IMG/VR virus record: IMGVR_UViG_2541047953_000002
DNA from: a virus
Taxonomy: Duplodnaviria > Heunggongvirae > Uroviricota > Caudoviricetes
Length of the DNA stretch: 28,241 nucleotides
Strand: one strand, 5' to 3'
Shown here: positions 1-18,320 of the stretch, piece by piece
How the letters are laid out: the number at the start of each line of letters is the position of its first letter
Position numbering within the stretch: position 1 is the stretch's first letter
Translations under genes and position numbers: made by a program
Notes under the pieces: generated by a model
Databases searched by the model: none
Told to the model about the DNA's origin: nothing
Seen by the model: the letters and a program-made list of their open reading frames with translations, nothing else

Positions 1-1284
1 TTACAGACTTCTGGAAGGTTGCGCAGCTCTTACAACACGCGGTTGATCTTCCGCGGCGTCTTCCAGCGCACTTAAATCACGGTCTTTCACTTCTGGCATT
101 TTCAGCGCAGAGATTAAACCAATCACTGAATATGCCATGATCATAATGGCGATCGGATACCAGGATTCCGTCATGGTGCAGAAAATACCCGCCAGGATAG
201 GACCAAAACCGGAAGCGATAAGACCACCAATTTCTTTAGAAATAGCCATCCGGGTAAAGCGGTTTTTACAGCCGAACATTTCTGCCATGGTAATATTTTC
301 CAGAGCAAATAATCCCAGCACCGCACAGTTATGAATCACAATCAGTGCAACCATAATGGTGCTCGGGGCATAGCTTTTATCTACGATGATAGAAAGCATT
401 GGCCATGCCAGCACAATCGCGGAGGTATTCATAATAATATACGGGATCCGGCGACCAATTTTATCGGATAACCAACCAAGGAACGGAATGGTCATAAAGC
501 CGAGAATCGAACTGATCATCAATGCATCTGTTGGAATTGCTTTGTTAAACAATAACGTCTGCACTAAATAGCCCGCAAGGAAAGTCTGAATTAAACCTGA
601 GTTACCCGCCTGACCAAAACGCAGCCCTGTTGCCAGCCAGAAGGATTTGCTCTGGAACATGCTACCAGCAGGTGCAGGTTTTGCTGTCGGTTGGTTGCTG
701 TCGTTAACCTTCTCAAAAACCGGGCTTTCTTTCAGATTCATACGCAACCAGATAGCAAAGACCATCACGACAACGCTCGCCAGGAACGGTATACGCCATC
801 CCCACGCCAGCAGTTCCTCTTTACTGAGAATGAAGAACATAAAGGCCCAGATTGCCGTTGCGCTTAAAGTTCCGCAGTTAGTTCCCATAGCCACAAATGA
901 GGAGATAATTCCGCGCTTACCTTTTGGCGCATATTCCGCCAGCATCGTACCGGCACCGGAAATTTCCGCACCTGCACCCAATCCCTGAATAATACGCAGC
1001 GTCACCAGCAAGATGGGGGCAAAAACACCAATCTGTGCATAGGTCGGTAACACACCAATTAAGGTGGTACAGATCCCCATCATGGTGATGGTAATAAAGA
1101 GCACTTTTTTACGCCCTATTCTGTCGCCCATTTTGCCGAAAATAAATGCTCCGACAATACGCGCCACATAACCTGCACCGTAGGTTCCCATTGCCAGAAT
1201 TAACGCCATTGCCGTTGATGATTCAGGAAAAAATATTTCATGAAACACTAACGCTGCGCCGAGCGAATATAACTGGAAATCCAT
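1..1284 (-). CDS. ydfJ: MFS metabolite:H+ symporter, 3' portion only (427 codons); N-terminal ~35 residues including first half of TM1 are missing at the prophage junction
   Basis: ORF track 1..1284 (-). Contains the MFS loop motif GDRIGRK and about 11 predicted TM segments. The start sits two codons after an in-frame TGA and the protein begins mid-TM1 by comparison with ShiA-type transporters recalled from memory. Confidence 0.8.
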   Translation of the reverse strand: MDFQLYSLGAALVFHEIFFPESSTAMALILAMGTYGAGYVARIVGAFIFGKMGDRIGRKKVLFITITMMGICTTLIGVLPTYAQIGVFAPILLVTLRIIQGLGAGAEISGAGTMLAEYAPKGKRGIISSFVAMGTNCGTLSATAIWAFMFFILSKEELLAWGWRIPFLASVVVMVFAIWLRMNLKESPVFEKVNDSNQPTAKPAPAGSMFQSKSFWLATGLRFGQAGNSGLIQTFLAGYLVQTLLFNKAIPTDALMISSILGFMTIPFLGWLSDKIGRRIPYIIMNTSAIVLAWPMLSIIVDKSYAPSTIMVALIVIHNCAVLGLFALENITMAEMFGCKNRFTRMAISKEIGGLIASGFGPILAGIFCTMTESWYPIAIMIMAYSVIGLISALKMPEVKDRDLSALEDAAEDQPRVVRAAQPSRSL

Positions 1285-1527
1285 AATTCACAGGTGTTTT
1301 TTCCCATCCTGTGGTTTCCTTGGCGTTTTCTAGGTTTTTTCAGATAGTTGCATTTTTTAAAAAGCATCCTAAGTTCGATCTCAGTGTCTATCTGGGGCCT
1401 ATTTCTGTCCCATATATGCCCCAAAAAAACTCCCCAACAGATAAGTAGTTTTTTCATGGATTTATGCGTAAAATCAAGAACGGCTGGAAATCATTCAATA
1501 CTCACACTATCGAAAAATTTACCAGCC

Positions 1528-1568
1528 AACCGCAGCACGTTCTTGCATAAGGCGTGTCTGCGGTTTTT
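1528..1568 (+). terminator. Imperfect ~12-bp hairpin followed by TTTTT; orphan intrinsic-terminator-like structure
   Basis: aaccgcagcacg ... cgtgtctgcggtt then ttttt, seen directly in sequence; no annotated plus-strand gene lies upstream. Confidence 0.3.
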
Positions 1569-1886
1569 CAACTATTCAGATACATCACTCCCATCACATT
1601 CATTCCTCCGCATCAAAGGCATATAGGCTATATCACCTTGATATTTTTCTTTTTCAGATAAAAACTGTTATCTATGTATACTTTTAAACCCAATCCGTGT
1701 AGAGTCTCTGCATAAGATAGTTTGCAGTTGCCGCTTCAGCTTGCGCCATAACCGCCTGATTTTTGCTGCCACCTGTTAGCATTCCTGTATACCTGAAACG
1801 ACAATGTTTATCTACGAACTTTAAGAACACCCAAGATAAAAATTGTCAACTATATCATATATAACACATTACTAATTCGAGGCTAT

Positions 1887-2000
1887 ATGAACAGCATACT
1901 GATAATCACTTCTCTCCTTATCATATTCAGCATTTTTAGTCATGCCCTAATAAAATTAGGGATTGGCATATCCAATAACCCAGACAAAACCGATGTATAA
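1887..2000 (+). CDS. Hypothetical 37-aa hydrophobic peptide ([37 protein letters not shown])
   Basis: ATG preceded by GAGG at 6-nt spacing; one predicted TM helix; below the ORF-track size cutoff, found by manual translation. Confidence 0.25.
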
Positions 2001-2068
2001 GTCAACATATCCTGAATCAGACATACAATATCGCAATGAAAATCAATAATATTTTAAGGAATATCTTC

Positions 2069-2302
2069 ATGAAATCAAAAGACACCCTAAAGTGGTTCCC
2101 TGCGCAGCTTCCTGAAGTAAGAATTATCCTAGGGGATGCTGTAGTGGAAGTAGCAAAACAGGGAAGACCTATCAATACCAGAACATTGCTTGATTACATT
2201 GAAGGAAACATAAAGAAAAAATCATGGCTGGATAACAAAGAATTATTACAAACAGCGATATCAGTTCTTAAAGACAACCAAAATTTAAATGGTAAAATGT
2301 AA
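2069..2302 (+). CDS. ydfK: YdfK/YnaE-family prophage protein (77 aa)
   Basis: ORF track 2036..2302; internal ATG at 2069 has an AAGGAA Shine-Dalgarno at ~8 nt and gives the K-12 length from memory. Confidence 0.75.
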   Translation: MKSKDTLKWFPAQLPEVRIILGDAVVEVAKQGRPINTRTLLDYIEGNIKKKSWLDNKELLQTAISVLKDNQNLNGKM

Positions 2303-2618
2303 TATAATAAACTTACTTTTTTATCATTTTTCCACTTTAACAACATTTTGCTCCACTTTTCCACGACCAAACAACTTAAAATCTGGTTAAAATAACACGA
2401 AACACTATTCTTCTTCCTTGAGTCCGCCCGGAACTCGAAAAACAAACCGAGTTAAAGCCATTTTTCACAAAATCGATTTTGGGTCTCACCAAAATTACGG
2501 GGTTGCATACGCATTCGTTTATTTTCGAACGTGTACATACAAATATGCACAAAAATAATCAAAATTATTTTCTGCGATGCATTATGATATGAACACCAAT
2601 TTCGTATAGAGTCTCACT

Positions 2619-3209
2619 ATGTCTCGAATTTTTGCTTACTGTCGGATATCAACGCTGGATCAGACCACCGAAAATCAACGCCGGGAAATCGAAAGTGCAG
2701 GTTTTAAAATCAAACCTCAGCAAATAATCGAAGAACACATTAGCGGCTCAGCAGCAACCAGTGAGCGTCCTAGTTTTAACCGGTTGCTTGCTCGCCTGAA
2801 ATGTGGTGATCAATTGATTGTGACAAAACTGGATCGCCTTGGTTGTAATGCAATGGATATCAGGAAAACAGTGGAACAACTGACCGAAACAGGTATCAGA
2901 GTGCATTGCTTAGCATTGGGGGGCATTGACTTGACCAGTCCAACAGGAAAAATGATGATGCAAGTAATTTCAGCAGTTGCTGAATTTGAACGAGACCTTT
3001 TACTTGAACGCACTCATTCCGGGATAGTAAGAGCCCGCGGCGCAGGGAAACGTTTTGGTCGACCACCTGTGTTAAATGAAGAACAGAAACAGGTGGTATT
3101 CGAACGAATTAAGTCAGGTGTAAGTATAAGTGCCATTGCCCGGGAATTCAAAACCTCGCGGCAAACCATTTTAAGAGCCAAAGCAAAACTTCAGACACCT
3201 GACATATAA
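2619..3209 (+). CDS. pinQ: Serine recombinase, DNA invertase of the Pin/Gin/Hin family (196 aa)
   Basis: N-terminal resolvase catalytic motif (YCRISTLDQ) and C-terminal HTH; ORF track. Confidence 0.9.
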
Positions 3210-3306
3210 AAAATAATCTCGGTGTGAGATGCTTTACGTCTTCCAAGCCCCCTTCCTTGCCGTAAATGGAAAGATACATCTAATTAAAGAATTTATATGT
3301 TTTACC

Positions 3307-3464
3307 CTACGGCAGTGCTGGCCATTCAATATCCTGTGCAGTTGACGTATCAACACGGTTCAGCAATACCCGATACTTTTTCCATGCTTCCAGCAACGAG
3401 ATTTCTTCCTCCGTTGCAATTTCCAGATCTGCAGCATCCTGAAGCGGCGCAATATGCTCACTGG
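3307..3464 (-). pseudogene. C-terminal remnant (~52 codons, no start) of a tail fibre assembly protein Tfa
   Basis: Manual translation gives ...[29 protein letters not shown], matching the Tfa C-terminus as recalled; the frame differs from the adjacent terminase gene and has no start codon. Confidence 0.6.
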
Positions 3465-4889
3465 CTACACAATGGTCGGGTCAATCCCGCCAGTATCCCA
3501 GCAGATACGGGATATCGACATTTCTGCACCATTCCGGCGGGTATAGGTTTTATTGATGGCCTCATCCACACGCAGCAGCGTCTGTTCATCGTCGTGGCGG
3601 CCCATAATAATCTGCCGATCAATCAGCCAGCTTTCCTCACCCGGCCCCCATCCCCATACGCGCATTTCGTAGCGGTCCAGTTGGGAGTCGATACCGGCGG
3701 TCAGGTAAGCCACACGGTCAGGAACGGGCGCTGAATAATGCTCTTTCCGCTCTGCCATCACTTCAGCATCCGGACGTTCACCGATTTTCGCTTCCCACGT
3801 CTCACCGAGCGTGGTGTTCACGAAGGTTTTACGTTTTCCCGTATCCCCTTTCGTCTTCATCCAGTCTTTGACAATCTGCACCCAGGTGGTGAACGGACTG
3901 TACGCCGTCCAGATGTGAAAGGTCACACTGTCAGGCGGTTCAATCTCTTCACCGGATGACGAAAACCAGAGAATGCCATCACGGGTCCAGATCCCGGTCT
4001 TTTCGCAGATATAACGGGCATCAGTAAAGTCCAGCTCCTGCTGACGGATGACGCAGGCGTTATGCTCACAGAGATAAAACACGCTGGAGGGGTCATCCGG
4101 CATCCATTTGAGGCCAAACGGCGTCTCTTTGTCGCCAAATTTAAGGTACTGCTCCTCCCCGCAGTGCGGGCAGGCAACATGAAAACGCATAAAATGCGGG
4201 GATTCACTGGCTGCACGCTCAATCTGGCAGGTGCCTCTCACTTTGGGCGTGGAGCCACGGATGGACTTTGGCCAGACCGAGCCTTCAATACGTTTGTCGC
4301 CAAGGAACGTCGGAGAGCCTTCCTGTTCAATATCCTCATCAAAGGCAGCAAGTTCATCATAACCCGCCACATCCACCGACTTTTCACGGTAGTTTTTTGC
4401 CGCTTTACCGCCCAGGCACCAGAAGCCACGACCATTGGTGAAACGCTTCATAGTGAGCGTGTTATCCCGGTGCTTTTTGCCATACCACGGAGCCAGCGCC
4501 AGCAGCGACGGAATATCGCGGATGGTCGGCTCAACGTGGGTTTTCATAAAGTTCTCGGCATCACCATCCGTCGGCAACCAGATAAGTGTGTTGCGCTGCT
4601 TATGCTCTATAAAGTAGGCATAAACACCCAGCAGCATTTTGGAATAACCGACACGGGCAGACTTCACCACATTCACCTCACGGATGTAGTCGCTGCCCAT
4701 CGCATTCATGATGGCCCGCTGAAAGGGCAGTGTTTCCCAGCGCCCTTCCTGGTATGCGGATTCTTTCGGGAGATAGTAATTAGCATCCGCCCATTCAACG
4801 GCGGTCTGTGGCTCCGGCCTGAACAGTGAGCGAAGCCCGGCGCGGACAAAATGCCGCAGCCTGTTAACCTGACTGTTCGATATATTCAC
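3465..4889 (-). CDS. Terminase large subunit, lambda gpA homologue, C-terminally truncated (474 of ~641 aa) at a deletion junction
   Basis: Protein matches lambda gpA from [14 protein letters not shown] through ...GGIDPTIV as recalled, then stops; lambda continues YERSKK. Confidence 0.9.
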
Positions 4890-5409
4890 TCAGCAACCCC
4901 GGTATCAGTTCATCCAGCGCGGCTGCTTTGTTCATGGCTTTGATGATATCCCGTTTCAGGAAATCAACATGTCGGTTTTCCAGTTCCGGAAAACGCCGCT
5001 GCACCGACAGGGGGATCCCGTCGAGAATACTGGCAATTTCACCTGCGATCCGCGACAGCACGAAAGTACAGAATGCGGTTTCCACCACTTCAGCTGAGTC
5101 TCTGGCATTCTTCAGTTCCTGTGCGTCGGCCTGCGCACGCGTAAGTCGATGGCGTTCGTACTCAATAGTCCCTGGCTGGAGATCTGTCTCGCTGGCCCGC
5201 CGCAGTTCTTCAACTTCCCGGCGCAGCTTTTCGTTCTCAATTTCAGCATCCCTTTCGGCATACCATCTTATAACGGCGGCAGAGTCATAAAGCACCTCAT
5301 TACCCTTGCCACCGCCTCGCAGAACGGGCATTCCCTGTTCCTGCCAGTTCTGAATGGTACGGATACTCGCACCGAAAATGTCAGCCAGCTGCTTTTTGTT
5401 GACTTCCAT
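4864..5409 (-). CDS. nohA: Terminase small subunit, lambda Nu1 homologue (181 aa)
   Basis: Near-identical to lambda Nu1 as recalled (MEVNKKQLADIFGASIRTIQNWQEQGMPVL...); overlaps the gpA start as in lambda. Confidence 0.9.
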   Translation of the reverse strand: MEVNKKQLADIFGASIRTIQNWQEQGMPVLRGGGKGNEVLYDSAAVIRWYAERDAEIENEKLRREVEELRRASETDLQPGTIEYERHRLTRAQADAQELKNARDSAEVVETAFCTFVLSRIAGEIASILDGIPLSVQRRFPELENRHVDFLKRDIIKAMNKAAALDELIPGLLSEYIEQSG

Positions 5410-5479
5410 TGTTCATTCCACGGCCAAAAACAGAGAAAGGAAACGACAGAGGCCCAAAAGTTCGTTTTCAGCACCTGTC

Positions 5480-5650
5480 GTTTCCTTTCTTTTTAGGGGG
5501 TATTTTAAATAAAAACATTAAGTTACGACGAAGAAGAACGGAAACGCCTTAAACCGGAAAATTTTCATAAATAGCGAAAACCCGCGAGGTCGCCGCCCCG
5601 TAACCTGTCGGATCACCGGAAAGGACCCGTAAAGTGATAATGATTATCAT
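5480..5650. other. cos site (cosQ-cosN-cosB) of lambda type
   Basis: Minus strand reads ...CGACAGGTTACG GGGCGGCGACCT CGCGGGTTTTCGCTATTTATG..., matching the lambda right end, cohesive end and left end as recalled. Confidence 0.8.
5587..5598 (-). other. cosN 12-nt cohesive-end sequence GGGCGGCGACCT
   Basis: Exact match to the lambda cosN 12-mer (established); seen directly. Confidence 0.85.
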
Positions 5651-5797
5651 CTACATATCACAACGTGCGTGGAGGCCATCAAACCACGTCAAATAATCAA
5701 TTATGACGCAGGTATCGTATTAATTGATCTGCATCAACTTAACGTAAAAACAACTTCAGACAATACAAATCAGCGACACTGAATACGGGGCAACCTC

Positions 5798-6031
5798 ATG
5801 TCAACGAAGAACAGAACCCGCAGAACAACAACCCGCAACATCCGCTTTCCTAACCAAATGATTGAACAAATTAACATCGCTCTTGAGCAAAAAGGGTCCG
5901 GGAATTTCTCAGCCTGGGTCATTGAAGCCTGCCGCCGGAGACTGTGCTCAGAAAAAAGAGTTTCTTCTGAAGCAAACAAAGAAAAGAGTGACATTACTGA
6001 ATTGCTCAGAAAACAGGTCAGACCAGATTGA
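5798..6031 (+). CDS. ynfO: Ribbon-helix-helix-like small prophage protein (77 aa)
   Basis: ORF track; RHH-like pattern (RNIRFPNQMIEQINIALEQ...FSAWVIEACRRRL); position and length match Qin ynfO from memory. Confidence 0.6.
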   Translation: MSTKNRTRRTTTRNIRFPNQMIEQINIALEQKGSGNFSAWVIEACRRRLCSEKRVSSEANKEKSDITELLRKQVRPD

Positions 6032-6088
6032 AGCAATTTAGATAATCGTGCAGACTACGCCCCCTCATATCACATGGAAGGTTTATCT

Positions 6089-6499
6089 ATGGATCAGGTA
6101 GTCATTTTTAAACAAATATTTGATAAAGTTCGAAACGATTTAAACTATCAATGGTTTTATTCTGAGCTAAAACGTCACAATGTCTCACATTACATTTACT
6201 ATTTAGCCACAGAGAATGTTCATATTGTATTAAAAAATGATAATACAGTGTTATTAAAGGGCCTAAAAAACATTGTGTCTGTCAAATTTTCAAAGGATAG
6301 GCATCTTATAGAAACGACCTCTAATAAGCTGAAATCCAGAGAGATCACATTTCAGGAATACAGAAGAAACCTTGCTAAAGCAGGAGTTTTTCGGTGGGTT
6401 ACAAATATCCACGAACAAAAAAGATATTACTATACCTTTGATAATTCATTACTATTTACTGAAAGCATCCAGAAAACTACACAGATCTTACCACGCTAA
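6089..6499 (+). CDS. ydfO: DUF1398-family prophage protein (136 aa)
   Basis: ORF track 6074..6499; ATG at 6089 has GGAAGG at ~8 nt and gives the K-12 length. Confidence 0.75.
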
Positions 6500-6599
6500 A
6501 CCATAACGTCCGGCTTCTCTCACTCCTGAGTCGGACTGCATTGGTTTAATAAAAACCATCAACAATTGTGATTTAGATATTCGGAACCATTCAAATATA

Positions 6600-6632
6600 A
6601 CAAAACCCCGTAAAAACGAGGTTTATGGATAA
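6600..6632 (-). terminator. Intrinsic terminator downstream of gnsB, possibly bidirectional
   Basis: Minus strand hairpin aacctcg/cggggtt (one mismatch) followed by a T-rich run. Confidence 0.4.
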
Positions 6633-6650
6633 ATTTTATTATTGAATACA

Positions 6651-6824
6651 TCAGATTAAATTAATCTTGACATCATAGCTTTCAAGACCCGTCATTTTTT
6701 CCCGTGCGGTAAACTGAATACTGGTAACTTCTTTCCCGGTCTTTTTCTTAAGTTCAATAATTTTTTTTGTTATATATTCAGAAATATCTGCTTCTGCTTT
6801 TGTTTTTAAGTTTTCAATATTCAT
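6651..6824 (-). CDS. gnsB: Gns-family small protein (57 aa; secG/fabA suppressor family)
   Basis: Manual translation MNIENLKTKAEADISEYITKKIIELKKKTGKEVTSIQFTAREKMTGLESYDVKINLI; Gns family by similarity recalled from memory; below ORF-track cutoff. Confidence 0.7.
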   Translation of the reverse strand: MNIENLKTKAEADISEYITKKIIELKKKTGKEVTSIQFTAREKMTGLESYDVKINLI

Positions 6825-6995
6825 CATTTCCTCTTTTAGTCTGTTATGACTTTCCAGTTACACAGTAAGTCGATTATATGGTGCAAACGTGTAAAAGATA
6901 AGATGAAACATCGCAATAATCAACATACGATAGTCTAAATTTTACACAAACAGACAAAGAGAATTTTCCTGAATTATCAATGCAATAGCATCAAA

Positions 6996-7151
6996 TCAAC
7001 TCAAGAGCCTTATTGCTGCTTCCAGAATTTCTTCTGAAGTAACATGTCGATCCGCGGCTACATAAATGACTTTATGATCTCCGGTCAGAGATGGAAACCC
7101 TGCGGCCATTACAGTAAGGTGTGTTTTTTCGCCATTTGGATATTCACGCAT
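6996..7151 (-). CDS. ynfN: Small prophage protein (51-aa form; a 76-aa form could start at 7226)
   Basis: ORF track 6996..7268 starts at TTG; the 51-aa start matches the K-12 length from memory; a terminator at 7271-7290 argues against the longest form. Confidence 0.5.
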   Translation of the reverse strand: MREYPNGEKTHLTVMAAGFPSLTGDHKVIYVAADRHVTSEEILEAAIRLLS

Positions 7152-7270
7152 GATGGTGTTAACTCCAGTCATCGCTGGCACTACCACTGCTGGTTCAGAG
7201 TTAAAAAAAACTATGATTTTTTTCATGATGTTACCGTAGTATGTGAGTATCCATCGAATAGACACCAAGC

Positions 7271-7290
7271 AAAAAAGCTCCCGAAGGAGC
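7271..7290 (-). terminator. Intrinsic terminator (hairpin gctcc/ggagc plus T6) in the cspI 3' region
   Basis: Seen directly; T-tract immediately follows the stem on the minus strand. Confidence 0.45.
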
Positions 7291-7497
7291 CTTCATTTTC
7301 ACTTTTTTAAATCCAACGACAGACGGCTGGCATTTAAGTATTGTGAAATATTATCAAATGTAATCATCATTGATTTACAAAAGATACATTTTGCCCCGAA
7401 AGGATTCATGTCAGAAACATCAAAAGATGATGTTCTATACTGGGAACCATGACAACACGGGCATCTAAAGTGAATATGGTTTGTAATATTGTCTACC

Positions 7498-7710
7498 TCA
7501 AAGCGCCACTACATGAACAGCGGCAGGACCTTTAGGTCCGTTCTCAATACCAAATTCAACTTCCTGATTCTCAGTTAATGTTTTGAAATCGTTGCTCTGA
7601 ATTGCTGAGAAATGGACAAACACATCTTTGCTGCCATCTTTCGGCGTGATGAAACCAAAACCTTTTTCAGGGTTAAACCATTTCACTAAACCAGTCATTT
7701 TGTTAGACAT
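7498..7710 (-). CDS. cspI: Cold-shock protein CspA family (70 aa)
   Basis: Protein [38 protein letters not shown]... with RNP1/RNP2 motifs. Confidence 0.95.
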
Positions 7711-8072
7711 AATTATTACCTTTTGAAGAAATTAGCCCTTGGGCAGAATGGTCCGAAAAAAAATATCAGAGAGAAAAACCAACAAGGAAATCTCAAGAGG
7801 TACAAATAATAAAATTATAACAATGACTGCTTCAGATAAATTTGTAACAAACCAGAACACCATTAACGCATGATTAACCACCCATAGCAAGGATTACTTT
7901 TGTAAAGAAAAACACAGCAATGAAAGAATAGCTTTATTTATTAATAAAACGTGTCATTCTGATTAAGACCTTTTATCTTACCCTTAAGATTTCAGGAATT
8001 TTGGCTCATGGAAGAGTCCTTTTTATTTAAATTTTACATTCCGCGATGTAAATGTTCCGATTTAATATTACC

Positions 8073-9096
<1,024 letters not shown>

Positions 9097-9100
<4 letters not shown>

Positions 9101-9408
9101 AGATATTTATGATGAGGACGCTCGTGCTTATTGGCAGGATTTTCAATCTTAAAGGAGTACTGATGCTGCAGATAAGACTCAACTTTTTCTGACAATTTTT
9201 CTGCTACTTCCAGGAAGACTTGCCGGACGCTCCTTCTGGCTGCTGCCTCATAAAACTCCAGCGCAGCTCCTTCAACACGGTCCATGGCGACATCCAGGTC
9301 AAAAATTTCACCGTCAAAGCGTTCTTTGTCCTGTAAGGCTACAGTTACCGTAACTTTATTCTCAAAATTACGGACTCCTTTCACAACCAGTTCATAGTCT
9401 TGAGTCAT
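9097..9408 (-). CDS. ydfR: DUF1327-family prophage protein (103 aa)
   Basis: ORF track; strong Shine-Dalgarno (AGGAG); ATGA overlap with the lysozyme start. Confidence 0.8.
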
Positions 9409-9412
9409 TGGA

Positions 9413-9628
9413 TTACTCTCCTCTCGCAGCCTTACGCCTGTCTTCTTTAATCTTGAAATAAAGATTTGTCAGATACGTCAGCAGGCCAAAAACCAGGCTA
9501 CCCAGCACACCGATTGCAGCCCACTGTGACGGAGTTACTTTATCGAGTAACTGCAATGCCCAGAAACCAGCATTACCCGCCGATGTGCCATAGGCAACAC
9601 CTGTTGTTAACTTATCCATTGATTTCAT
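9413..9628 (-). CDS. essQ: Class II-like holin with dual-start motif (71 aa; second start at 9619)
   Basis: N-terminus M-K-S-M resembles the holin/antiholin dual start; two TM segments; ORF track reports a longer frame 9413..9703. Confidence 0.85.
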
Positions 9629-9847
9629 ATCCTCACCCCGATGTACACGGATGGTGCAATATGTTTGAAAAGATCGGAGTCTACGGGGTAGTTTTGACAG
9701 CACACGTTGTTCTCAACGGCGCTAAAAAAACATACACATTAAAAATGTGGGTAATTATTTTGAAAGAAAGTCATATATAAAATAATAATACGAGAAATGT
9801 TTTCATATTTAGTGTACTGTATACGGCCATTTATACAGGAAAAGCCT

Positions 9848-10018
9848 ATGTCAGAACGTAAAAACTCAAAATCACGCCGTAATTATCTCGTTAAATGTTC
9901 CTGCCCAAACTGCACCCAAGAGTCAGAACACAGTTTTTCAAGAGTACAAAAAGGTGCCCTTTTGATCTGCCCTCATTGCAACAAAGTATTCCAGACAAAT
10001 CTTAAAACTGTAGCCTGA
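9848..10018 (+). CDS. Small zinc-ribbon protein (56 aa; CxCxxC...CxxC)
   Basis: ORF track 9797..10018; internal ATG with AGGA at ~7 nt; four conserved-looking cysteines. Confidence 0.5.
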   Translation: MSERKNSKSRRNYLVKCSCPNCTQESEHSFSRVQKGALLICPHCNKVFQTNLKTVA

Positions 10019-10080
10019 TTGATTTTATTAGTAACAAGTATTTTTTATATTTTAATAATATATTTAAAGCAGATAATAAA

Positions 10081-10100
10081 AAACCCGCCTGAGCGGGTTT
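10081..10100. terminator. Bidirectional intrinsic terminator between the convergent zinc-ribbon gene and cspB
   Basis: Stem aaacccgc/gcgggttt with loop ctga; T-run on the minus strand, weaker T-run on plus. Confidence 0.6.
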
Positions 10101-10381
10101 GAGATTGTGGTGCTTTTTGTGGGAGTCATCCACTTACGCACTTTGTTTTGCCATGCCAGCAGTTAGCTTCTGCTGTAAAACTATTCATGCAGCAAACCTG
10201 CACTTCACCACAATGGTTAGCATACTTTTCCTGATTAAGATTTTGCCAAATATGCTAGCCATTGTTTCATGTATTGGACCTCCTTACTTTTTATTAAAGA
10301 GATCCAATATTCACTACTCTGTCCGTATCTCTACTCAGGCATCAGCCTTCTTCGTTATCGTATACAGACGAGCGATGAATT

Positions 10382-10597
10382 TTAATCAGTAATGATGACA
10401 TTTGCTGCTGCAGGACCTTTAGCACCACTCTCTATAGAGAAGGTAACCTTTTGACCTTCAAATAAGGTTCGATAATTATCATTCTGAATCGCAGAAAAAT
10501 GCACAAACACATCTTTACTACCATCAACAGGAGAAATAAAGCCGAAACCTTTATCAGCGTTAAACCATTTTACTAAACCAGTCATTTTATTTGACAT
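10382..10597 (-). CDS. cspB: Cold-shock protein CspA family (71 aa)
   Basis: Protein [38 protein letters not shown]... Confidence 0.95.
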
Positions 10598-10897
10598 TCT
10601 ACATTCCTTAACTTGAGCCTTTCGGCATAAATGGTTTGCATAACAGAAACGACTTCGTACTTAATTGGAGAGACTCAAAGAAGGAATAAGTGAATAACAC
10701 CTGAAATGAGAACTGCTTTAGTAAACTACTTCGTATATCGTCTGTTCTTCAAACCGACGCAATCATTAACGCATAGTTGAACATATGAAGCAATGTTTAT
10801 TTTAGACATCCAGCCATCTTCAACCCCATCAAAAAACTATAGCTTTCTTCAGGAACGTGTGTATAGTGCGCCAAGTTATCAGTATTAAGGAATTTTT

Positions 10898-11110
10898 TTG
10901 TCCCGTAAAATGACAGGAATTGTCAAAACCTTTGACGGCAAAAGCGGCAAGGGTCTTATCACCCCATCCGATGGTCGTATCGATGTCCAGCTTCATGTTT
11001 CAGCGCTCAATCTCCGCGATGCAGAAGAAATTACCACCGGATTACGCGTGGAATTTTGCCGGATAAATGGTCTGCGTGGCCCTTCAGCTGCCAATGTTTA
11101 CCTTTCATGA
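10898..11110 (+). CDS. cspF: Cold-shock-like protein (70 aa; start codon here is TTG)
   Basis: Protein [41 protein letters not shown]...; divergent from cspB. Confidence 0.85.
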
Positions 11111-11402
11111 GCTATATTAAAGCTTTAATTTCAGGCCCCATCGGATCACACATGGAGAGTTTTTATGAATAACCCCGTCTGTCTTGATGACTGGTTGATT
11201 GGCTTTAAAAGCTTATGCTGTACTTTGGCCGTAATAGCTCTGCTAATAATATAATAAGCAGACTCATTGTGTTTAGGGACATTGTACTGGAAGAAAACAT
11301 TTTAAACATCAGGCAAATAACCAAGTCACCAGCTAAATAATAAGTTAACAGACATGAGTCCCGGGATGAGATTCAACATTACCATTGCCCCATTTAAAGC
11401 AC

Positions 11403-11426
11403 AAAACCCGCTCATCAGCGGGTTTT
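11403..11426. terminator. Intrinsic terminator; candidate tR' for the late promoter on the minus strand and terminator for cspF on plus
   Basis: Stem aaaacccgc/gcgggtttt with T-rich flanks on both strands. Confidence 0.6.
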
Positions 11427-11464
11427 CTACTTTTTCTTAACGTCGGGTATACAAAGCCCATCGT

Positions 11465-11500
11465 TGAAAAAATTTTATCCATATTTTTTGAAAAATGCAA
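11465..11500 (-). promoter_or_regulatory. Candidate late promoter PR' (-35 TTGCAT, 17-nt spacer, -10 TAAAAT) immediately downstream of Q
   Basis: Hexamers read directly on the minus strand; position matches lambdoid PR'/qut architecture. Confidence 0.5.
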
Positions 11501-11531
11501 ACATCATGTCGCCATCTTCAGCAAAAATCAT

Positions 11532-12284
11532 TTATCTCGTCACCTTCCTCAATTGCGCTTCCGCGTATGCTTCTTCCTGCCAGCACTTTGTTACCAGTTT
11601 ACCAATGACGTCCGCATACCCCTTATACCACTGATAATCGGTCAGGTCTGGTACCAGCTTCTGGACATGACGTCGTGCCAGCGTGGTCGGTAAACGACTA
11701 AACCGGTTTCCATTACAACGCCCACAAATCTTATATACCGGTACGCCATGAAACCGGGTTCTTTTTTCATCCAGAACAATCCCTTTACCCTTACACCCTC
11801 TGCACGCTGTGCTGGCTTCGCCCTTACCATGGCAATGCTGACATAGTTCCTTCACCCATTCTTCCTTGATTACAGATTCCCCGCGTCTGTAGTGTTTCAC
11901 CACTTCGCGCAATACATTATAAAATCCCGTACCTGAACAATGCTCACAGCGAGCCTTACTTGCCGCAGACCTGGAGTAATCAGCAAAGGCAAAACTCACG
12001 AGGTAAGGAATAATCTGTAACCGGATTTCTTCACTCAATTTGTTCAATGTCGGGTTATCCAGTGCCATCGCGTAATTTAGCAGGCCTTCAATCGCAAACT
12101 GAGGGTCCTGAACACCAACTTTTGCCAGAAATAAGGCCAACCCAAGTGGTGCTTTCGACTGCACCATCCCCTGCGCTGCCATTACATCCGTAATTGTTAA
12201 ACAACCGGTGCCTGTCGCTGGAGCGTCATCGCTCAATTTTGGAGATTTTGGGGAGTAATATTTTGGTAAGGCTTCAAGGTTCAT
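11532..12284 (-). CDS. quuQ: Late-gene antiterminator Q homologue (250 aa)
   Basis: ORF track 11532..12314; ATG at 12284 has GGAG at ~7 nt; Cys-rich zinc-binding region. Confidence 0.9.
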   Translation of the reverse strand: MNLEALPKYYSPKSPKLSDDAPATGTGCLTITDVMAAQGMVQSKAPLGLALFLAKVGVQDPQFAIEGLLNYAMALDNPTLNKLSEEIRLQIIPYLVSFAFADYSRSAASKARCEHCSGTGFYNVLREVVKHYRRGESVIKEEWVKELCQHCHGKGEASTACRGCKGKGIVLDEKRTRFHGVPVYKICGRCNGNRFSRLPTTLARRHVQKLVPDLTDYQWYKGYADVIGKLVTKCWQEEAYAEAQLRKVTR

Positions 12285-12297
12285 GCTCGTTCTCCAC

Positions 12298-13063
12298 TTA
12301 CGCCAGTACGCCAATTGCCAGCGCGCGATCGATAAAACGAAATATCAGCTCCAGTTGGGAGCCATACTTATCTTCAAATGCCACTGTATCCGTATGCAGC
12401 TCGTTGTGATGCTTTCTGCACAAAGGCAACACAAAGAGATCATGTGCTTTTGTTCCCATTCCGCCCTGCCCGTGACCAATCAGATGATGCGGATCGTCGG
12501 CTGGCATACCGCAGCAAGCACACGGCTGTGTCTTAACCCAACGTGTGTATTTCTCCTTAACCCAGCGGCGACGTTTAGGCAGCTTCATGAAAGATTCCGG
12601 AGACTCTGGATCAACGGTGATGCTTACCACCGTCTTTTCCTGTGGTGATTTTTGTTGCTGGTGGGCGTAAGGCAACGGTGCAAGATTTTTTGTGCGTTGT
12701 TTCAATATGCTGGTGGCGGTCTGCTCTCCCGGTACGATGTCGCTTTCGCGGTACACCGAGCAGATTTTTTCCGCTGGTAATCCCAGCAAACGACGCGATA
12801 CAGCCTCAGGTAGTGCATCCACCACCTGATTGCAGACCGCCCACCAGGATAATTCAGCCAAAGATAATTCCCGCTCCTGCGTACCGCTTATTGCGTGACG
12901 GATGACGTCAATCACCCATGCTGTCAGATTTTGTTGAGCAAGCAGCTCCAGTGATTCCGATGTCTGGTCACGCAGTTGGTTGTCGCAGTGCCAGCACAAC
13001 ACCATTGCGCCGGTACCATAACGGTGAATGACTGTTTCAGTGTGATGGTAATCGCCATTAGGC
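12298..13063 (-). pseudogene. ydfU: ydfU (DUF968, HNH-motif protein) C-terminal 255 codons, separated from its 5' part by an IS66-family insertion
   Basis: HNH-like motif CACCGMPADDPHHL...HH; frame and length reconstruct a 349-aa gene once the IS and one duplication copy are removed. Confidence 0.8.
13056..13063. repeat. 8-bp target-site duplication CATTAGGC (left copy) of the IS66-family element
   Basis: Identical 8-mer at 15596-15603 directly abutting the other IS end. Confidence 0.8.
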
Positions 13064-13148
13064 GTAAGCGTAAACTGACCGCCGTATGTAGCCATCAGAC
13101 GAGAATTGGTAACTTAGACGCCCATCTGATATAGACGGACATCTAAGT

Positions 13149-13574
13149 ATGGAATTACAGGACTGGCGAAAAGAACCTCGTAAAAACTATTCGAATGAAT
13201 TCAAACTTCGTATGGTGGAACTGGCATCACAACCTGGAGCTTGTGTTGCACAGATTGCACGTGAAAATGGCGTCAATGATAATGTTATTTTCAAATGGCT
13301 CAGGCTCTGGCAGAACGAAGGGCGTGTTTCGCGGCGTCTTCCGGTAACGACCTCTTCTGACACTGGCGTTGAATTATTACCTGTAGAAATAACGCCGGAT
13401 GAGCAGAAAGAACCTGTGGCGGCCATTGCGCCGTCTTTATCCACTTCCACTCAGACCAGAGTCAGTGCCAGTTCCTGCAAGGTGGAATTCCGTCACGGTA
13501 ACATGACGCTGGAAAATCCATCGCCAGAGCTGCTCACAGTGTTGATCCGTGAACTGACCGGGAGGGGAAGATGA
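13149..13574 (+). CDS. IS66-family accessory protein TnpA (HTH, 141 aa)
   Basis: ORF track; first gene of the IS66 triad; 4-nt overlap with tnpB. Confidence 0.85.
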   Translation: MELQDWRKEPRKNYSNEFKLRMVELASQPGACVAQIARENGVNDNVIFKWLRLWQNEGRVSRRLPVTTSSDTGVELLPVEITPDEQKEPVAAIAPSLSTSTQTRVSASSCKVEFRHGNMTLENPSPELLTVLIRELTGRGR

Positions 13575-13921
13575 TCTCACTCCCATCAGGTACCCGTATC
13601 TGGCTCGTTGCCGGCGTTACCGATATGCGTAAATCCTTCAACGGACTGGGAGAACAGGTACAACATGTGCTGAATGATAATCCCTTCTCCGGTCACCTGT
13701 TTATCTTCCGTGGCCGACGGGGTGACACCGTCAAAATTCTTTGGGCTGATGCTGATGGTCTGTGCCTGTTCACCAAACGCCTGGAGGAAGGCCAGTTTAT
13801 CTGGCCTGCGGTACGTGACGGCAAGGTATCCATTACCCGCTCGCAACTGGCAATGCTCCTCGATAAGCTGGACTGGCGCCAGCCAAAAACATCCAGCCGT
13901 AACTCACTGACAATGTTGTAA
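13571..13921 (+). CDS. IS66-family TnpB (116 aa)
   Basis: Characteristic N-terminus PSGTRIWLVAGVTDMRKSFNGL. Confidence 0.9.
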   Translation: MISLPSGTRIWLVAGVTDMRKSFNGLGEQVQHVLNDNPFSGHLFIFRGRRGDTVKILWADADGLCLFTKRLEEGQFIWPAVRDGKVSITRSQLAMLLDKLDWRQPKTSSRNSLTML

Positions 13922-13951
13922 AAAACTCCTGACCGCATTATAAAAACGGTC

Positions 13952-15565
13952 ATGAGTCAGAAATACCTCATTCGCATCGCAGAGCTGGAAAGGTTGCTCT
14001 CTGAGCAGGCTGAAGCCCTCCGTCAGAAAGACCAGCAACTGAGTCTGGTTGAAGAGACGGAAGCCTTCCTGCGCTCTGCACTGACACGTGCCGAAGAAAA
14101 GATCGAAGAAGATGAACGGGAAATAGAACATCTGCGGGCTCAGATAGAAAAACTGCGCCGGATGCTGTTCGGTACCCGTTCTGAAAAACTGCGTCGTGAA
14201 GTTGAACTGGCTGAGGCTCTGCTGAAACAACGTGAACAGGACAGCGATCGTTACAGTGGGCGGGAAGACGATCCTCAGGTTCCCCGCCAGTTGCGACAGT
14301 CGCGCCATCGTCGTCCGTTACCGGCACACCTTCCCCGTGAAATACACCGCCTGGAGCCAGAAGAAAGCTGTTGCCCGGAGTGTGGCGGTGAGCTGGATTA
14401 TCTGGGGGAAGTCAGCGCTGAACAGCTGGAACTGGTGAGCAGTGCCCTGAAAGTGATCCGCACAGAACGGGTAAAAAAAGCCTGTACAAAATGTGACTGT
14501 ATTGTTGAAGCACCGGCGCCGTCCCGCCCGATAGAGCGTGGTATCGCGGGCCCCGGATTACTTGCCCGCGTGTTAACGGGAAAATACTGCGAACATCTGC
14601 CACTGTATCGTCAGAGTGAAATCTTTGCCCGCCAGGGTGTCGAACTGAGCCGGGCCTTACTCTCCAACTGGGTTGACGCGTGCTGCCAGTTAATGACACC
14701 GGTGAATGATGCCCTGTACCGTTATGTAATGAACACCCGCAAGGTTCACACTGATGACACACCGGTAAAGGTACTGGCACCGGGTCAGAAAAAGGCGAAA
14801 ACAGGGCGTATCTGGACGTATGTCCGGGATGATCGCAATGTGGGTTCGTCATCTCCTCCAGCGGTCTGGTTCGCGTACTCGCCGAACCGGCAGGGGAAAC
14901 ACCCGGAGCAACACCTCCGCCCCTTCCGGGGTATCCTGCAGGCGGATGCGTTCACAGGTTACGACAGGTTGTTCAGTGCAGAACGTGAAGGTGGTGCACT
15001 GACAGAAGTTGCGTGCTGGGCCCATGCCCGGCGAAAAATCCACGATGTATACATCAGCAGCAAAAGTGCGACGGCAGAAGAAGCCCTGAAGCGAATCAGT
15101 GAACTGTACGCCATCGAGGATGAAATACGGGGATTACCGGAGTCAGAGCGTCTTGCCGTCAGGCAGCAGCGAAGCAAAGTGTTACTGACGTCGCTGCATG
15201 AATGGATGGTGGAGAAGAATGGTACGCTGTCGAAAAAATCCAGACTGGGCGAAGCGTTCAGCTATGTACTGAATCAGTGGGATGCCCTCTGTTATTACAG
15301 TGATGACGGTCTGGCGGAGGCGGATAATAATGCTGCGGAAAGAGCGCTTCGTGCAGTCTGTCTCGGAAAGAAAAACTTTATGTTCTTTGGCAGCGATCAC
15401 GGCGGCGAGCGTGGAGCACTGTTGTACGGGCTGATCGGCACCTGCCGTCTGAACGGTATCGATCCGGAAGCGTATCTGCGCCATATCCTGAGCGTACTGC
15501 CGGAATGGCCTTCCAACCGAGTTGACGAACTCCTGCCATGGAACGTAGTACTCACCAATAAATAA
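13952..15565 (+). CDS. IS66-family transposase TnpC (537 aa)
   Basis: N-terminal coiled coil, CxxC...CxxC zinc finger, and conserved CWAHARRK / NNAAERALR motifs. Confidence 0.9.
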   Translation: MSQKYLIRIAELERLLSEQAEALRQKDQQLSLVEETEAFLRSALTRAEEKIEEDEREIEHLRAQIEKLRRMLFGTRSEKLRREVELAEALLKQREQDSDRYSGREDDPQVPRQLRQSRHRRPLPAHLPREIHRLEPEESCCPECGGELDYLGEVSAEQLELVSSALKVIRTERVKKACTKCDCIVEAPAPSRPIERGIAGPGLLARVLTGKYCEHLPLYRQSEIFARQGVELSRALLSNWVDACCQLMTPVNDALYRYVMNTRKVHTDDTPVKVLAPGQKKAKTGRIWTYVRDDRNVGSSSPPAVWFAYSPNRQGKHPEQHLRPFRGILQADAFTGYDRLFSAEREGGALTEVACWAHARRKIHDVYISSKSATAEEALKRISELYAIEDEIRGLPESERLAVRQQRSKVLLTSLHEWMVEKNGTLSKKSRLGEAFSYVLNQWDALCYYSDDGLAEADNNAAERALRAVCLGKKNFMFFGSDHGGERGALLYGLIGTCRLNGIDPEAYLRHILSVLPEWPSNRVDELLPWNVVLTNK

Positions 15566-15595
15566 GCGTCAATACGGTGCTCCGTTGACGCTTAC

Positions 15596-15603
15596 CATTA
15601 GGC
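15596..15603. repeat. 8-bp target-site duplication CATTAGGC (right copy)
   Basis: Matches 13056-13063. Confidence 0.8.
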
Positions 15604-15887
15604 CACTGGCAGGATGTAACATGACGTAATAGCCAGTCGGACAATGCGCCAACGCCGCCAGCAGCACGAATCACCCGTTCGTTACTAAAAAACGGCAGCA
15701 ATGTTTTGTCTTCCGCCAGCGGCTGGCGAACGGCAGGAACGACTCCGGATGGCAGATTACGCATGCTTTTTGGTTCCGGTTCCACCAGCACTCGAGGATT
15801 ATGAAATATCTGTATGGATTCACGGCCCGGCTTAAGGACCACCAGCCCAAGCTCAGGCACCAGAACAGGTCTAAGTAATACCCGCAC
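15596..15887 (-). pseudogene. ydfU: ydfU N-terminal 97 codons (GTG start at 15887 with GGAGG Shine-Dalgarno)
   Basis: Same frame as the C-terminal fragment after removing IS plus one duplication (2540 bp); ORF track 15552..15926 reads into the IS. Confidence 0.75.
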
Positions 15888-15888
15888 G

Positions 15889-16167
15889 TTACCTCCAGAT
15901 CCGTTGCTGGAAAGTGCGGGACGCACGTGGTGGGCGTTCGGAATAAGGCAGCCTGACAGAGATTATCCAGTGCCGATAGTCGAGACTGAGAGCTTTCTTA
16001 ACCTCGAACCCGCGCCTGCGGTAAGAATGAATCAGCCATTCGGCCTGTTCTGCAGTGCATGGAGGGTGCTGGAACCATTCAGACTTGAATGCGTGAGAAT
16101 ACCGCCCGTGCGTGCAGGCAAGAACGGGCGAATTATCAGAATTGTAATATTTTGCGTTGCGTGCCAT
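15889..16167 (-). CDS. Hypothetical prophage protein (92 aa, Trp/Arg-rich), apparently translationally coupled to ydfU
   Basis: ORF track; ATG with GGAGA at ~6 nt; stop lies 1 nt before the ydfU GTG start. Confidence 0.5.
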   Translation of the reverse strand: MARNAKYYNSDNSPVLACTHGRYSHAFKSEWFQHPPCTAEQAEWLIHSYRRRGFEVKKALSLDYRHWIISVRLPYSERPPRASRTFQQRIWR

Positions 16168-16233
16168 CGGTTTTCTCCGGTGGCACGGTGTTACTCAGCG
16201 GGAGTTCAGCCCCGCGCAAGATTGTAGATGAGT

Positions 16234-16485
16234 TTATTCTCCTGAAAAAGCAGAAAAGCCAGCTTTTATTCCGATCTCTTTCAATGCCTGTAATGAAGTG
16301 ACAAACTCACCTTCGCGCAAGATAAATCCGTCCGTGACCCGAGCATCCACAAAATTAATTAACGCAGCCCCATTCTTTCGCAAACACATAATGCGGTAAT
16401 GACTAACAAGATTTCCATTTTCAACGCACACAGCATAGAGGCCATCTTCACAAAAAATTTTACGCAGTTCTTCGATGTTCATCAT
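16234..16485 (-). CDS. rem: Small prophage protein (83 aa)
   Basis: ORF track; length and position (between ydfU and hokD) match K-12 rem from memory. Confidence 0.55.
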   Translation of the reverse strand: MMNIEELRKIFCEDGLYAVCVENGNLVSHYRIMCLRKNGAALINFVDARVTDGFILREGEFVTSLQALKEIGIKAGFSAFSGE

Positions 16486-16596
16486 CAGAATCCTTCCGGA
16501 TAATTAGCTCTCCCCTTTAAGGGACCATCCCTCTTATCCCTGCGCGCTACTTAAGTATTTTTGATTCTATTCCGGCACCGTCCAGAACTTCAAACG

Positions 16597-16633
16597 CGTT
16601 GAAAATAAAAACAAAAACCCGCCGAAGCGGGTT
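16597..16633 (-). terminator. Intrinsic terminator ending the relB-relE-hokD operon
   Basis: Stem aacccgc/gcgggtt with loop cgaa, followed on the minus strand by TTTTTGTTTTTATTTT. Confidence 0.65.
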
Positions 16634-16701
16634 AAGTGCGGGTGCGTTGAGGATGCCTGCCACATCAGAGGTGGCGAGGGATTTCTCCCCCGCCGGGTCT
16701 C

Positions 16702-16857
16702 TTACTCCTCAGGTTCGTAAGCTGTGAAGACAGCGACCTCCGTCTGGCCGGTTCGGATTCGTACCTCGCAGAGGTCTTTCCTCGTTACCAGTGCCGTCAC
16801 TATGACGGTTAAACAGATGACGATCAGGGCGATTAACATCGCCTTTTGCTGCTTCAT
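16702..16857 (-). CDS. hokD: Hok-family membrane toxin (51 aa; HokD/RelF)
   Basis: Manual translation MKQQKAMLIALIVICLTVIVTALVTRKDLCEVRIRTGQTEVAVFTAYEPEE; below ORF-track cutoff. Confidence 0.85.
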   Translation of the reverse strand: MKQQKAMLIALIVICLTVIVTALVTRKDLCEVRIRTGQTEVAVFTAYEPEE

Positions 16858-16928
16858 AGCCTGCTTCTCCTGTCAACGCAAAGCAGAAGTGTCACCTTCG
16901 GTGCGAAACAGAGATGTCATGCTTTGGT

Positions 16929-17216
16929 TCAGAGAATGCGTTTGACCGCCTCGCTATATACTTCCGAGCGTTCTCTTTTCCCAACAGAAATCACGAAAAC
17001 GACAACTTTCTCGTCTATAACCTGGTATACAAGGCGATAGCCTGAAGACCGGAGCTTAATCTTGTAACAATCAGGCATACCACGGAGCTTGTTTGCTTCA
17101 ATCCGGGGTGACTCAAGTACTTCAACCAGCTTCTTTTTCAACTGTTCACGTACCGTCGAGCCCAGCTTTCGCCATTCCTTTAGTGCCCGCTCGTCAAAAT
17201 CCAGAAAATACGCCAT
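16929..17216 (-). CDS. relE: RelE mRNA-interferase toxin (95 aa)
   Basis: ORF track; classic RelE sequence; overlaps the relB stop. Confidence 0.95.
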   Translation of the reverse strand: MAYFLDFDERALKEWRKLGSTVREQLKKKLVEVLESPRIEANKLRGMPDCYKIKLRSSGYRLVYQVIDEKVVVFVISVGKRERSEVYSEAVKRIL

Positions 17217-17455
17217 CAGAGTTCATCCAGCGTCACACGTACTGGCTTAGGATTACGAAGCCGTTCTTTCACTATCTCCACAAGTTCAGCATCTTCATCA
17301 CTCAGGAGTGTCTGTTTGAACGGCAAGCGTTCATTGTCAGCGATATACTCGAGCATGAGACGAAGCGCTTCAGAAGGAGTTACACCCATTTTTTCAAGCG
17401 CGGCGTAAGAACGCGCTTTAAGTTCATCGTCAATACGCAGGTTAATGCTACCCAT
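17216..17455 (-). CDS. relB: RelB antitoxin (79 aa)
   Basis: ORF track; ribbon-helix-helix N-terminus. Confidence 0.95.
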   Translation of the reverse strand: MGSINLRIDDELKARSYAALEKMGVTPSEALRLMLEYIADNERLPFKQTLLSDEDAELVEIVKERLRNPKPVRVTLDEL

Positions 17456-17525
17456 GTCTTACACCTCTTGTAATTACAAATGTCATTACAAGTATCGCAC
17501 TACAACATGCTTAGGGCAAGTCACG
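17456..17525 (-). promoter_or_regulatory. relBE promoter and relO-type operator (12-bp perfect palindrome TTGTAATTACAA at 17468-17479 plus adjacent TGTCATTACAAG repeat)
   Basis: Palindromic hexad repeats seen directly upstream of the relB start; candidate -35 TTGCCC and -10 GATACT. Confidence 0.6.
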
Positions 17526-17785
17526 AAGGAAGTCAGAAAGTAGTCGTAAGAACGGTGATCACTGTCCGCTTTGTGCCAGGAGCAGCCATTGCTAAGTCCA
17601 TCCTGTATTGTGCAGGTCAGCTCGTTTTTAAAGAGTCCGGCCATCATCTTACTGGTACAGACACCATATACTTTGTGACGGTCAGGCTACATATGCACAA
17701 CTCAACTTATTCATCTATTTTTTGCTTTAGCATGTCAGTGTTGCTTTCTCGTCGGCGGGTGAGCGGTGACCTGACCTGTCGATAA
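17480..17785 (+). CDS. ydfV: Hypothetical protein (101 aa); start codon lies inside the relO operator
   Basis: ORF track; length and position match K-12 ydfV from memory; no clear Shine-Dalgarno; may not be expressed. Confidence 0.4.
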   Translation: MSLQVSHYNMLRASHEGSQKVVVRTVITVRFVPGAAIAKSILYCAGQLVFKESGHHLTGTDTIYFVTVRLHMHNSTYSSIFCFSMSVLLSRRRVSGDLTCR

Positions 17786-17937
17786 AGGAACGTAACACGT
17801 TTTATGCAACACCCGCATGCGGCAGAAAATTATTGCCGAACGTTTACCCCTGTCAACAAGCTTTACTTTCTGAGGCGCGCCAGCCCGCGAGGAAAACAAT
17901 CTGAACATCAAACAATTAATGACACAAGAAATACGAT

Positions 17938-17964
17938 TAAAGATTTTTTTGTGCATGCCGATAG
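17938..17964 (+). promoter_or_regulatory. Sigma-28 (FliA) promoter: TAAA-N15-GCCGATAG
   Basis: Near-consensus match to TAAA-N15-GCCGATAA about 25 nt upstream of the flxA start. Confidence 0.65.
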
Positions 17965-17987
17965 TGCTTTTTTAAAAGGAGAAATCT

Positions 17988-18320
17988 ATGTCTGTCACAA
18001 TTCAGGGAAATACCTCAACCGTTATTTCAAACAACTCCGCCCCGGAAGGAACATCAGAAATAGCCAAAATCACAAGACAAATTCAGGTGCTGACTGAAAA
18101 GCTTGGGAAAATCTCATCGGAAGAGGGGATGACGACACAGCAGAAAAAAGAAATGGCTGCATTGGTACAGAAGCAAATTGAAAGCCTCTGGGCTCAACTG
18201 GAGCAGTTGTTAAGGCAGCAGGCAGAGAAAAAGAATGAAGACGCGACAGTTCAGCCTGATAAAAAAGAAGAGAAAAAAGACGATACAAATACCGCTGGCA
18301 CCATTGATATTTACGTCTAA
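17988..18320 (+). CDS. flxA: FliA-regulated protein FlxA (110 aa)
   Basis: ORF track; AGGAG Shine-Dalgarno; sigma-28 promoter upstream. Confidence 0.9.
   Translation: MSVTIQGNTSTVISNNSAPEGTSEIAKITRQIQVLTEKLGKISSEEGMTTQQKKEMAALVQKQIESLWAQLEQLLRQQAEKKNEDATVQPDKKEEKKDDTNTAGTIDIYV

Follow-up and report, generated by a model that had tools for sequence, protein, structure and literature searches.

The DNA analyzed here, a stretch of 28,241 bp referred to as the window, is filled by an entire Qin cryptic prophage, running from the truncated ydfJ gene through the integrase. Assignment to Qin was judged by insertion between ydfJ and the rspB side and by the Qin gene set (ydfK, pinQ, nohA, ydfO, gnsB, cspI, cspB, cspF, relBE, hokD, dicB and intQ). 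The window is colinear from ydfJ to intQ with K-12 Qin at 99-100% identity, and it is also colinear with the Qin prophage of VG888-46E9. Segments 99-100% identical to K-12 Qin DNA are 1-3468, 4881-13063, 15595-18941, 23578-24897 and 27082-28241. The locus of interest is a deletion scar, around which the gene order is pinQ (plus strand), a remnant of a tail-fibre assembly (tfa) gene, a truncated terminase gene A and nohA (all three on the minus strand). The features are as follows.

2619..3209, plus strand: pinQ, an intact serine recombinase gene of the invertase family, forming the left flank (196-aa ORF; Pfam Resolvase and HTH_7)
3307..3468, minus strand: 3' remnant of tfaQ (nt 415-576, residues 139-191, with the stop codon at 3307-3309), a pseudogene fragment
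3341..3535, minus strand: match to Rfam RF02111 'IS009', spanning the junction (132.6 bits vs a gathering score of 117)
3465..4889, minus strand: truncated terminase large-subunit gene A (codons 1-474 of 641, plus a stop codon made by the junction)
3466..3468, no strand: junction microhomology TAC (GTA on the coding strand), present in both parents and assignable to either gene
4864..5409, minus strand: nohA, an intact Nu1-type terminase small-subunit gene, forming the right flank (181-aa ORF; Pfam Phage_Nu1 1-164 of 164, E 7e-101)

The pinQ gene, convergent with the tfa remnant, has an annotated counterpart in the same place in K-12 and in other strains. Likewise, nohA is annotated as such in relatives.

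Several other features of this prophage were noted. A second deletion at 23578-23579, amounting to 3,106 bp relative to VG888-46E9 and showing a 2-bp overlap, removes a ydaT-like gene, dicC, dicA, ydfA, ydfB, ydfC and the dicF sRNA while keeping dicB and ydfD; Rfam gives no DicF match in the window. The division inhibitor gene dicB is left without its repressor and, presumably, without its promoter. An IS66-family element (tnpA, tnpB and a 537-aa tnpC) occupies 13064-15594 within ydfU, is flanked by a target duplication of about 8-9 bp and is absent from both K-12 and VG888-46E9. At 18757-21414, an ISNCY-family transposase ORF of 437 aa (18757-20070) and an IS1 copy (20647-21414) lie in a segment that is absent from K-12, with a match to the Rfam sok RNA at 20144-20315. 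The IS1 copy shows 91.5% identity to IS1B and a 9-bp target duplication, and VG888-46E9 does not have it. Finally, 24095-28241 carries uninterrupted ORFs for an 835-aa RecE-like exonuclease and a 431-aa integrase. In K-12, IS2 interrupts the exonuclease gene and intQ is a pseudogene, and in VG888-46E9 the exonuclease gene is cut by an IS3-family element.

The terminase fragment is a minus-strand ORF with a GTG start at 4889, codon 474 at 3470-3468 and a TAG stop at 3467-3465. Its product aligns without gaps to residues 1-474 of the 641-residue lambda gpA, with 472 of the 474 positions identical, and its DNA is 99.8% identical to the intact A gene of VG888-46E9. The DNA match to lambda-like phages begins at window position 3466, with none before it, so that the end of the terminase frame coincides exactly with the end of gpA identity, as a sequence-only reading of the window had stated. 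The ATPase domain is complete (Pfam GpA_ATPase, PF05876; residues 47-285, profile positions 3-237 of 247, E 4e-51). Of the nuclease domain (GpA_nuclease, PF20454), only profile positions 2-152 of 294 are present, and the ORF ends after residue 474, short of the complete nuclease domain, the C-terminal end and the 641 aa of full-length gpA. The C-terminal end of lambda gpA binds the prohead, and gpA 1-474 is without that end. Judged from its sequence, the truncated A gene is a predicted pseudogene, a non-functional member of the lambda-type terminase large subunits.

In another minus-strand frame, 3468-3310 encodes 53 residues, followed by a stop codon at 3309-3307. All 53 are identical to residues 139-191 of K-12 TfaQ and 49 are identical to the same residues of lambda Tfa; the piece matches Pfam Caudo_TAP (PF02413) over profile positions 79-130 of 131 (E 7e-25), and its DNA equals intact tfaQ up to 3468. 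Residues 1-138 are absent: an in-frame stop lies shortly upstream, the frame has no start codon, and the ORF list holds no ORF of at least 30 aa starting with ATG, GTG or TTG in this frame. The matches of both fragments, terminase and tfa, are far beyond chance. The sequence-only reading had recognized the frame at 3307-3464 as the last ~52 residues of a Tfa protein lacking a start codon; it does align to Tfa proteins, and the extent given is right within the 3-bp ambiguity of the junction.

The Rfam match at the scar was considered as a separate IS009 RNA gene and rejected as such. The RF02111 family corresponds to the sense strand of tfa genes at nt ~344-542, and the model lies inside K-12 tfaD; it thus represents the conserved 3' coding region of tfa and flags tfa remnants. 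The window has only the 3' two-thirds of this region: model positions 66-199 fall on the tfa remnant, and positions 1-65 align poorly to terminase-derived DNA. Accordingly, the window scar scores 132.6 bits, as against 220.9 bits for intact tfaQ and 227.8 bits for K-12 tfaD.

The junction was read base by base against the undeleted tfaQ and A genes of strains 789 and ETEC1732. On the plus strand, the tfaQ parent reads ...CACTGGCTAC up to the breakpoint and CTGCATC... beyond it, the A parent reads ...CGTTCATAC and then ACAATGG..., and the window reads ...CACTGGCTACACAATGG... across the junction. The trinucleotide TAC at 3466-3468 is common to both parents and constitutes a 3-bp microhomology. 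A nt 1424 is joined to tfaQ nt 415, such that the window keeps 1,424 nt of A and 162 nt of tfaQ. The terminase stop codon is itself created by the junction, TAG being formed from TA and the first tfa-only base, G. Since the stop codon lies at the junction, the product is predicted to be gpA 1-474 without any additional residue. The junction contains no inserted or filler DNA, no IS element or IS end and no target-site duplication, and scans for promoters, terminators and repeats around the scar gave nothing above chance.

Intact relatives define what was lost. The late gene order of phage lambda, nu1-A-W-B-C-D-E-FI-FII-Z-U-V-G-T-H-M-L-K-I-J-lom-stf-tfa, is common to intact Qin prophages, and the intact Qin-type prophages of ETEC1732, HCP6S3_I2 and VG888-46E9 retain 21.3 kb that is absent from the window. 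VG888-46E9, in which the region from A to tfaQ is intact, matches window positions 1-3468 at 100% identity and the part from 3466 onwards at 99.7%; the window segments 1-3468 and 3466-5479 fall 22,113 bp apart on its sequence and overlap by TAC. Elsewhere, leaving aside IS insertions and a further deletion, its Qin prophage is 99.9% identical to the window. The late region is likewise intact in HCP6S3_I2 and ETEC1732, which have the same flank haplotype as the window. Overall, the scar flanks are 99.5-100% identical to these three prophages, with differences at 0 of 1043 positions on the left and 5-7 of 1621 on the right. The missing interval measures 21,336 bp against HCP6S3_I2, 21,337 bp against ETEC1732 and 22,113 bp against VG888-46E9, the last figure including a 777-bp IS1 insertion in stf. 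The lost genes are A from nt 1425 to 1926, W, B, C, D, E, FI, FII, Z, U, V, G, T, H, M, L, K, I, J, lom, stf and tfaQ nt 1-414.

Junctions of other strains were mapped against the ETEC1732 parent; the resulting sample of alleles is biased towards junctions near that of the window.

EC812A1: A nt 1558 to tfa nt 416
26561: A nt 1894 to tfa nt 440
TOK-001: A nt 1558 to stf nt 2842
WP2-S18-ESBL-08: A nt 1558 to a variant stf
strain 41: A nt 1351 to stf
EC7: A nt 1050 to stf
DLI.5a: A nt 1184 to stf
LD27-1: A nt 1146 to a C-gene fragment to stf
S1: portal nt 633 to tfa nt 132
EC09: portal nt 634 to tfa nt 318
789: W to H

Junctions that could be read against both parents carry microhomologies of 2-9 bp, namely TAC, TA, AA, TATC, ATA, ATACCG, TT and CCGTCTTTC. 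Two candidates were discarded during mapping. A tfa endpoint at nt 440 seemingly shared by strain H2 proved to be where the sequence switches to another tfa type, a mosaic boundary and not a deletion endpoint. K-12 tfaX is not a truncated tfaQ-type gene: it belongs to another tfa type and has in common with tfaQ only the conserved C-terminal module, which, in the comparison of the two, starts at SE(H/Y)IAPLQDA.

The explanation that best accounts for the scar, and one that we regard as highly probable, is a single microhomology-mediated event of illegitimate recombination. Such an event, of the RecA-independent type and located at 3465-3468, would have removed ~21.3 kb of late genes in a single step from an intact, VG888-like Qin prophage, possibly by replication slippage or end joining at the TAC microhomology. 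In support of this, other Qin deletion alleles carry the same kind of 2-9 bp microhomology. A prophage so reduced would be unable to package DNA or to build particles, and the scar itself is expected to have no further function. The sequence-only reading had proposed that one deletion took the rest of A, all head and tail genes and most of tfa. As to content, the proposal is borne out by the interval present in the intact relatives; as to number, a single event is the most parsimonious account, because the nearest haplotype is intact and no intermediate scar is known, and it is unprovable from the end state.

The main alternative concerns the number of steps. The Qin prophage of EC812A1 (NZ_CP116046.1) has the same two genes fused, with pinQ and nohA intact, and PGAP annotates an incomplete terminase and an incomplete tail fibre assembly protein there. 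Its junction lies at tfa nt 416 instead of 415, has TA instead of TAC as microhomology and keeps about 132-134 nt more of A (to nt 1558). With the tfa endpoints within 1 nt of each other, the window allele could have arisen from an older junction of A nt 1558 to tfa nt 416 by a 132-bp deletion that trimmed A to nt 1424. This second deletion would have to start within 1-2 nt of the older junction. A precedent for such nesting exists in S1 and EC09, where portal nt 633/634 is joined to tfa nt 132 and tfa nt 318, respectively, and there is good evidence for a nested deletion no more than 2 nt from the older junction. Because these two strains are near-clonal, their flanks differing at 0 of 1043 and 1 of 1621 positions, the pair looks like an old scar from which, at most 2 nt away, a second deletion started. 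The flanks of the window and EC812A1, however, differ on both sides (7/1043 on the left, 22/1621 on the right), the nearest discriminating SNPs lying 181 bp to the left and 49 bp to the right of the junction, whereas the window matches intact Qin on both flanks (0/1043 and 5-7/1621). Moreover, the direct route makes use of 3 bp of microhomology and the two-step route of 2 bp. We therefore consider the two-step route improbable, and an independent, single-step origin from a VG888-like intact Qin prophage is, with reasonable confidence, favoured over it.

The near-coincidence of tfa endpoints is part of a wider pattern. A nt 1558 has been used with three partners in four strains (EC812A1, WP2-S18-ESBL-08, the Qin prophage of TOK-001 and the DLP12 prophage of FT130), tfa nt 415/416 in two alleles on different haplotypes (window and EC812A1) and portal nt 633/634 in S1 and EC09. 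Alleles sharing one endpoint, within 0-2 nt, differ at the other. The site at tfa nt 415 lies 1-2 codons upstream of the start of the conserved C-terminal Tfa module, which is the mosaic boundary in K-12 tfaX. Recurrence of endpoints exceeds the expectation for random breakpoints and is best treated as a lead, the sample being biased to nearby junctions. It suggests that the simple picture of random slippage is incomplete, as breakpoints appear not to be randomly placed. Either sequence-specific hot spots or scars promoting further one-sided deletions could make breakpoints in the Qin/DLP12 late region non-random, an idea that we put forward tentatively and regard as rather doubtful. A scan with a tfa 29-mer plus NNV for any junction at the tfa breakpoint returned none in metagenome contigs and none in GTDB species representatives, and all 120 fetched metagenome copies of a tfa 24-mer continue as intact tfa; the scans thus lend no support to a frequently used hot spot at the tfa site. 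An identical junction of A nt 1558 to stf nt 2842, with TATC, occurs in DLP12 of FT130, KFu019 and EC50 and in Qin of TOK-001 (positions 3558-3561 of the extracted FT130 locus, in DLP12 adjoining appY, and 2137-2140 of the TOK-001 Qin locus). The presence of the same junction in two prophages shows that homologous recombination copied the scar from one lambdoid prophage to another.

Endpoints that recur with different partners are also what a site-specific enzyme would be expected to produce, and we considered whether PinQ acting on pseudo-sites, or an IS-mediated adjacent deletion, made the scar. An intact pinQ lies 255 bp from the junction, six of the eight mapped microhomologies contain TA, and the IS1 of VG888-46E9 sits inside the deleted interval. 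Enzymes of the Hin/Gin/Pin group cross over at a 26-bp site with a core resembling AAACC-NN-GGTTT. The parental breakpoint sites, read directly, are unlike this core, and the core motif, allowing up to 2 mismatches, was found 14 times in the window against 16.5 expected, with no occurrence near 3466. IS-mediated adjacent deletions, for their part, retain the IS, and neither an IS nor a target-site duplication is present at the junction. An enzymatic origin is thus weakly refuted, and we judge it very unlikely.

Selection for the retained pieces seems equally unlikely. Under this explanation, gpA 1-474 would have been domesticated, or the 3' end of tfa (IS009) would act as an RNA or a cis element with a function. 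In its favour, many isolates share an identical, open gpA ORF, the IS009 match exceeds its gathering score and no mapped allele retains less than about 137 bp from the 3' end of tfa, albeit in a sample of alleles biased to nearby junctions. The lengths of A that are retained, on the other hand, vary widely (9, 308, 1050, 1146, 1184, 1351, 1424, 1558 and 1894 nt), arguing that no particular fragment is favoured. Moreover, the 99% identity to lambda gpA is more in keeping with a recent loss than with prolonged maintenance, and IS009 is tfa coding sequence that scores far below intact tfa here.

Comparison of the junction across E. coli genomes, proposed together with the initial reading, shows that the allele is rare. 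It was found in one piece in none of 5,426 complete RefSeq E. coli genomes, among which only EC812A1 and 26561 have nearby but different junctions. On the other hand, at least eight contigs from drafts or read assemblies carry it: all eight that were fetched (five NCBI drafts and three Logan read assemblies, one of the Logan contigs being seen in 18 samples) agree in every base of the 40-nt junction sequence, and their flanks show 99.8-100% identity to the window. At least 12 contigs, one of them of 4.37 Mb, encode exactly the 474-aa protein of the window. A 90%-identity cluster of truncated terminases was unusable for mapping junctions, as it consists mostly of fragments cut at contig ends. 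Because the identical junction occurs in eight independent contigs with near-identical flanks, it is a genuine, rare natural allele, and an assembly or chimera artefact, for which only the absence from complete RefSeq genomes speaks, can practically be dismissed. One of the contigs (BGFO01000115.1, from GCA_005395425.1) has the identical junction and matches window 2364-5785. Past nohA, a DLP12-type late region (nmpC-like porin, essD, rrrD, rzpD, borD, ybcV, ybcW, ylcI) replaces the Qin genes, which indicates a Qin x DLP12 recombinant or a rearrangement.

Our literature searches retrieved no paper describing Qin junction alleles. The scar is one instance of frequent and well-understood prophage decay, represented here by a previously undescribed allele, and adds one more route by which a known cryptic prophage lost its particle genes. 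Its main use is as a clean, base-resolved lineage marker, given its occurrence in none of the complete genomes and in a handful of drafts. Mild novelty attaches only to the reuse of breakpoints by different alleles; if these are real hot spots, this locus would offer a handy natural model of how prophages erode.

Taken with roughly a dozen further alleles of Qin and DLP12, the window allele shows that independent deletions have repeatedly removed the late region and left nohA, pinQ and the early and lysis cargo in place. In K-12 MG1655, Qin occupies the same locus with the same gene order (nohA-stfQ-tfaQ-pinQ) and has also lost the morphogenesis genes between the terminase and tail-fibre regions. 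There, nohA and 9 nt of A are joined to a 963-bp stfQ remnant and tfaQ is whole, in agreement with the initial reading that K-12 differs in retaining stfQ and tfaQ. Since the K-12 and window alleles each retain DNA that is absent from the other, the two deletions are independent and neither allele derives from the other. A scar of this kind is also present in DLP12 of K-12, a sister lambdoid cryptic prophage, as the aaaD-tfaD pseudogene pair: on the downstream side of nohD, a Nu1 homologue, the N-terminal part of A runs into tfa sequence. Its endpoints differ from those of the window, with A nt 308 joined to tfaD nt 147 at a locus adjoining appY.
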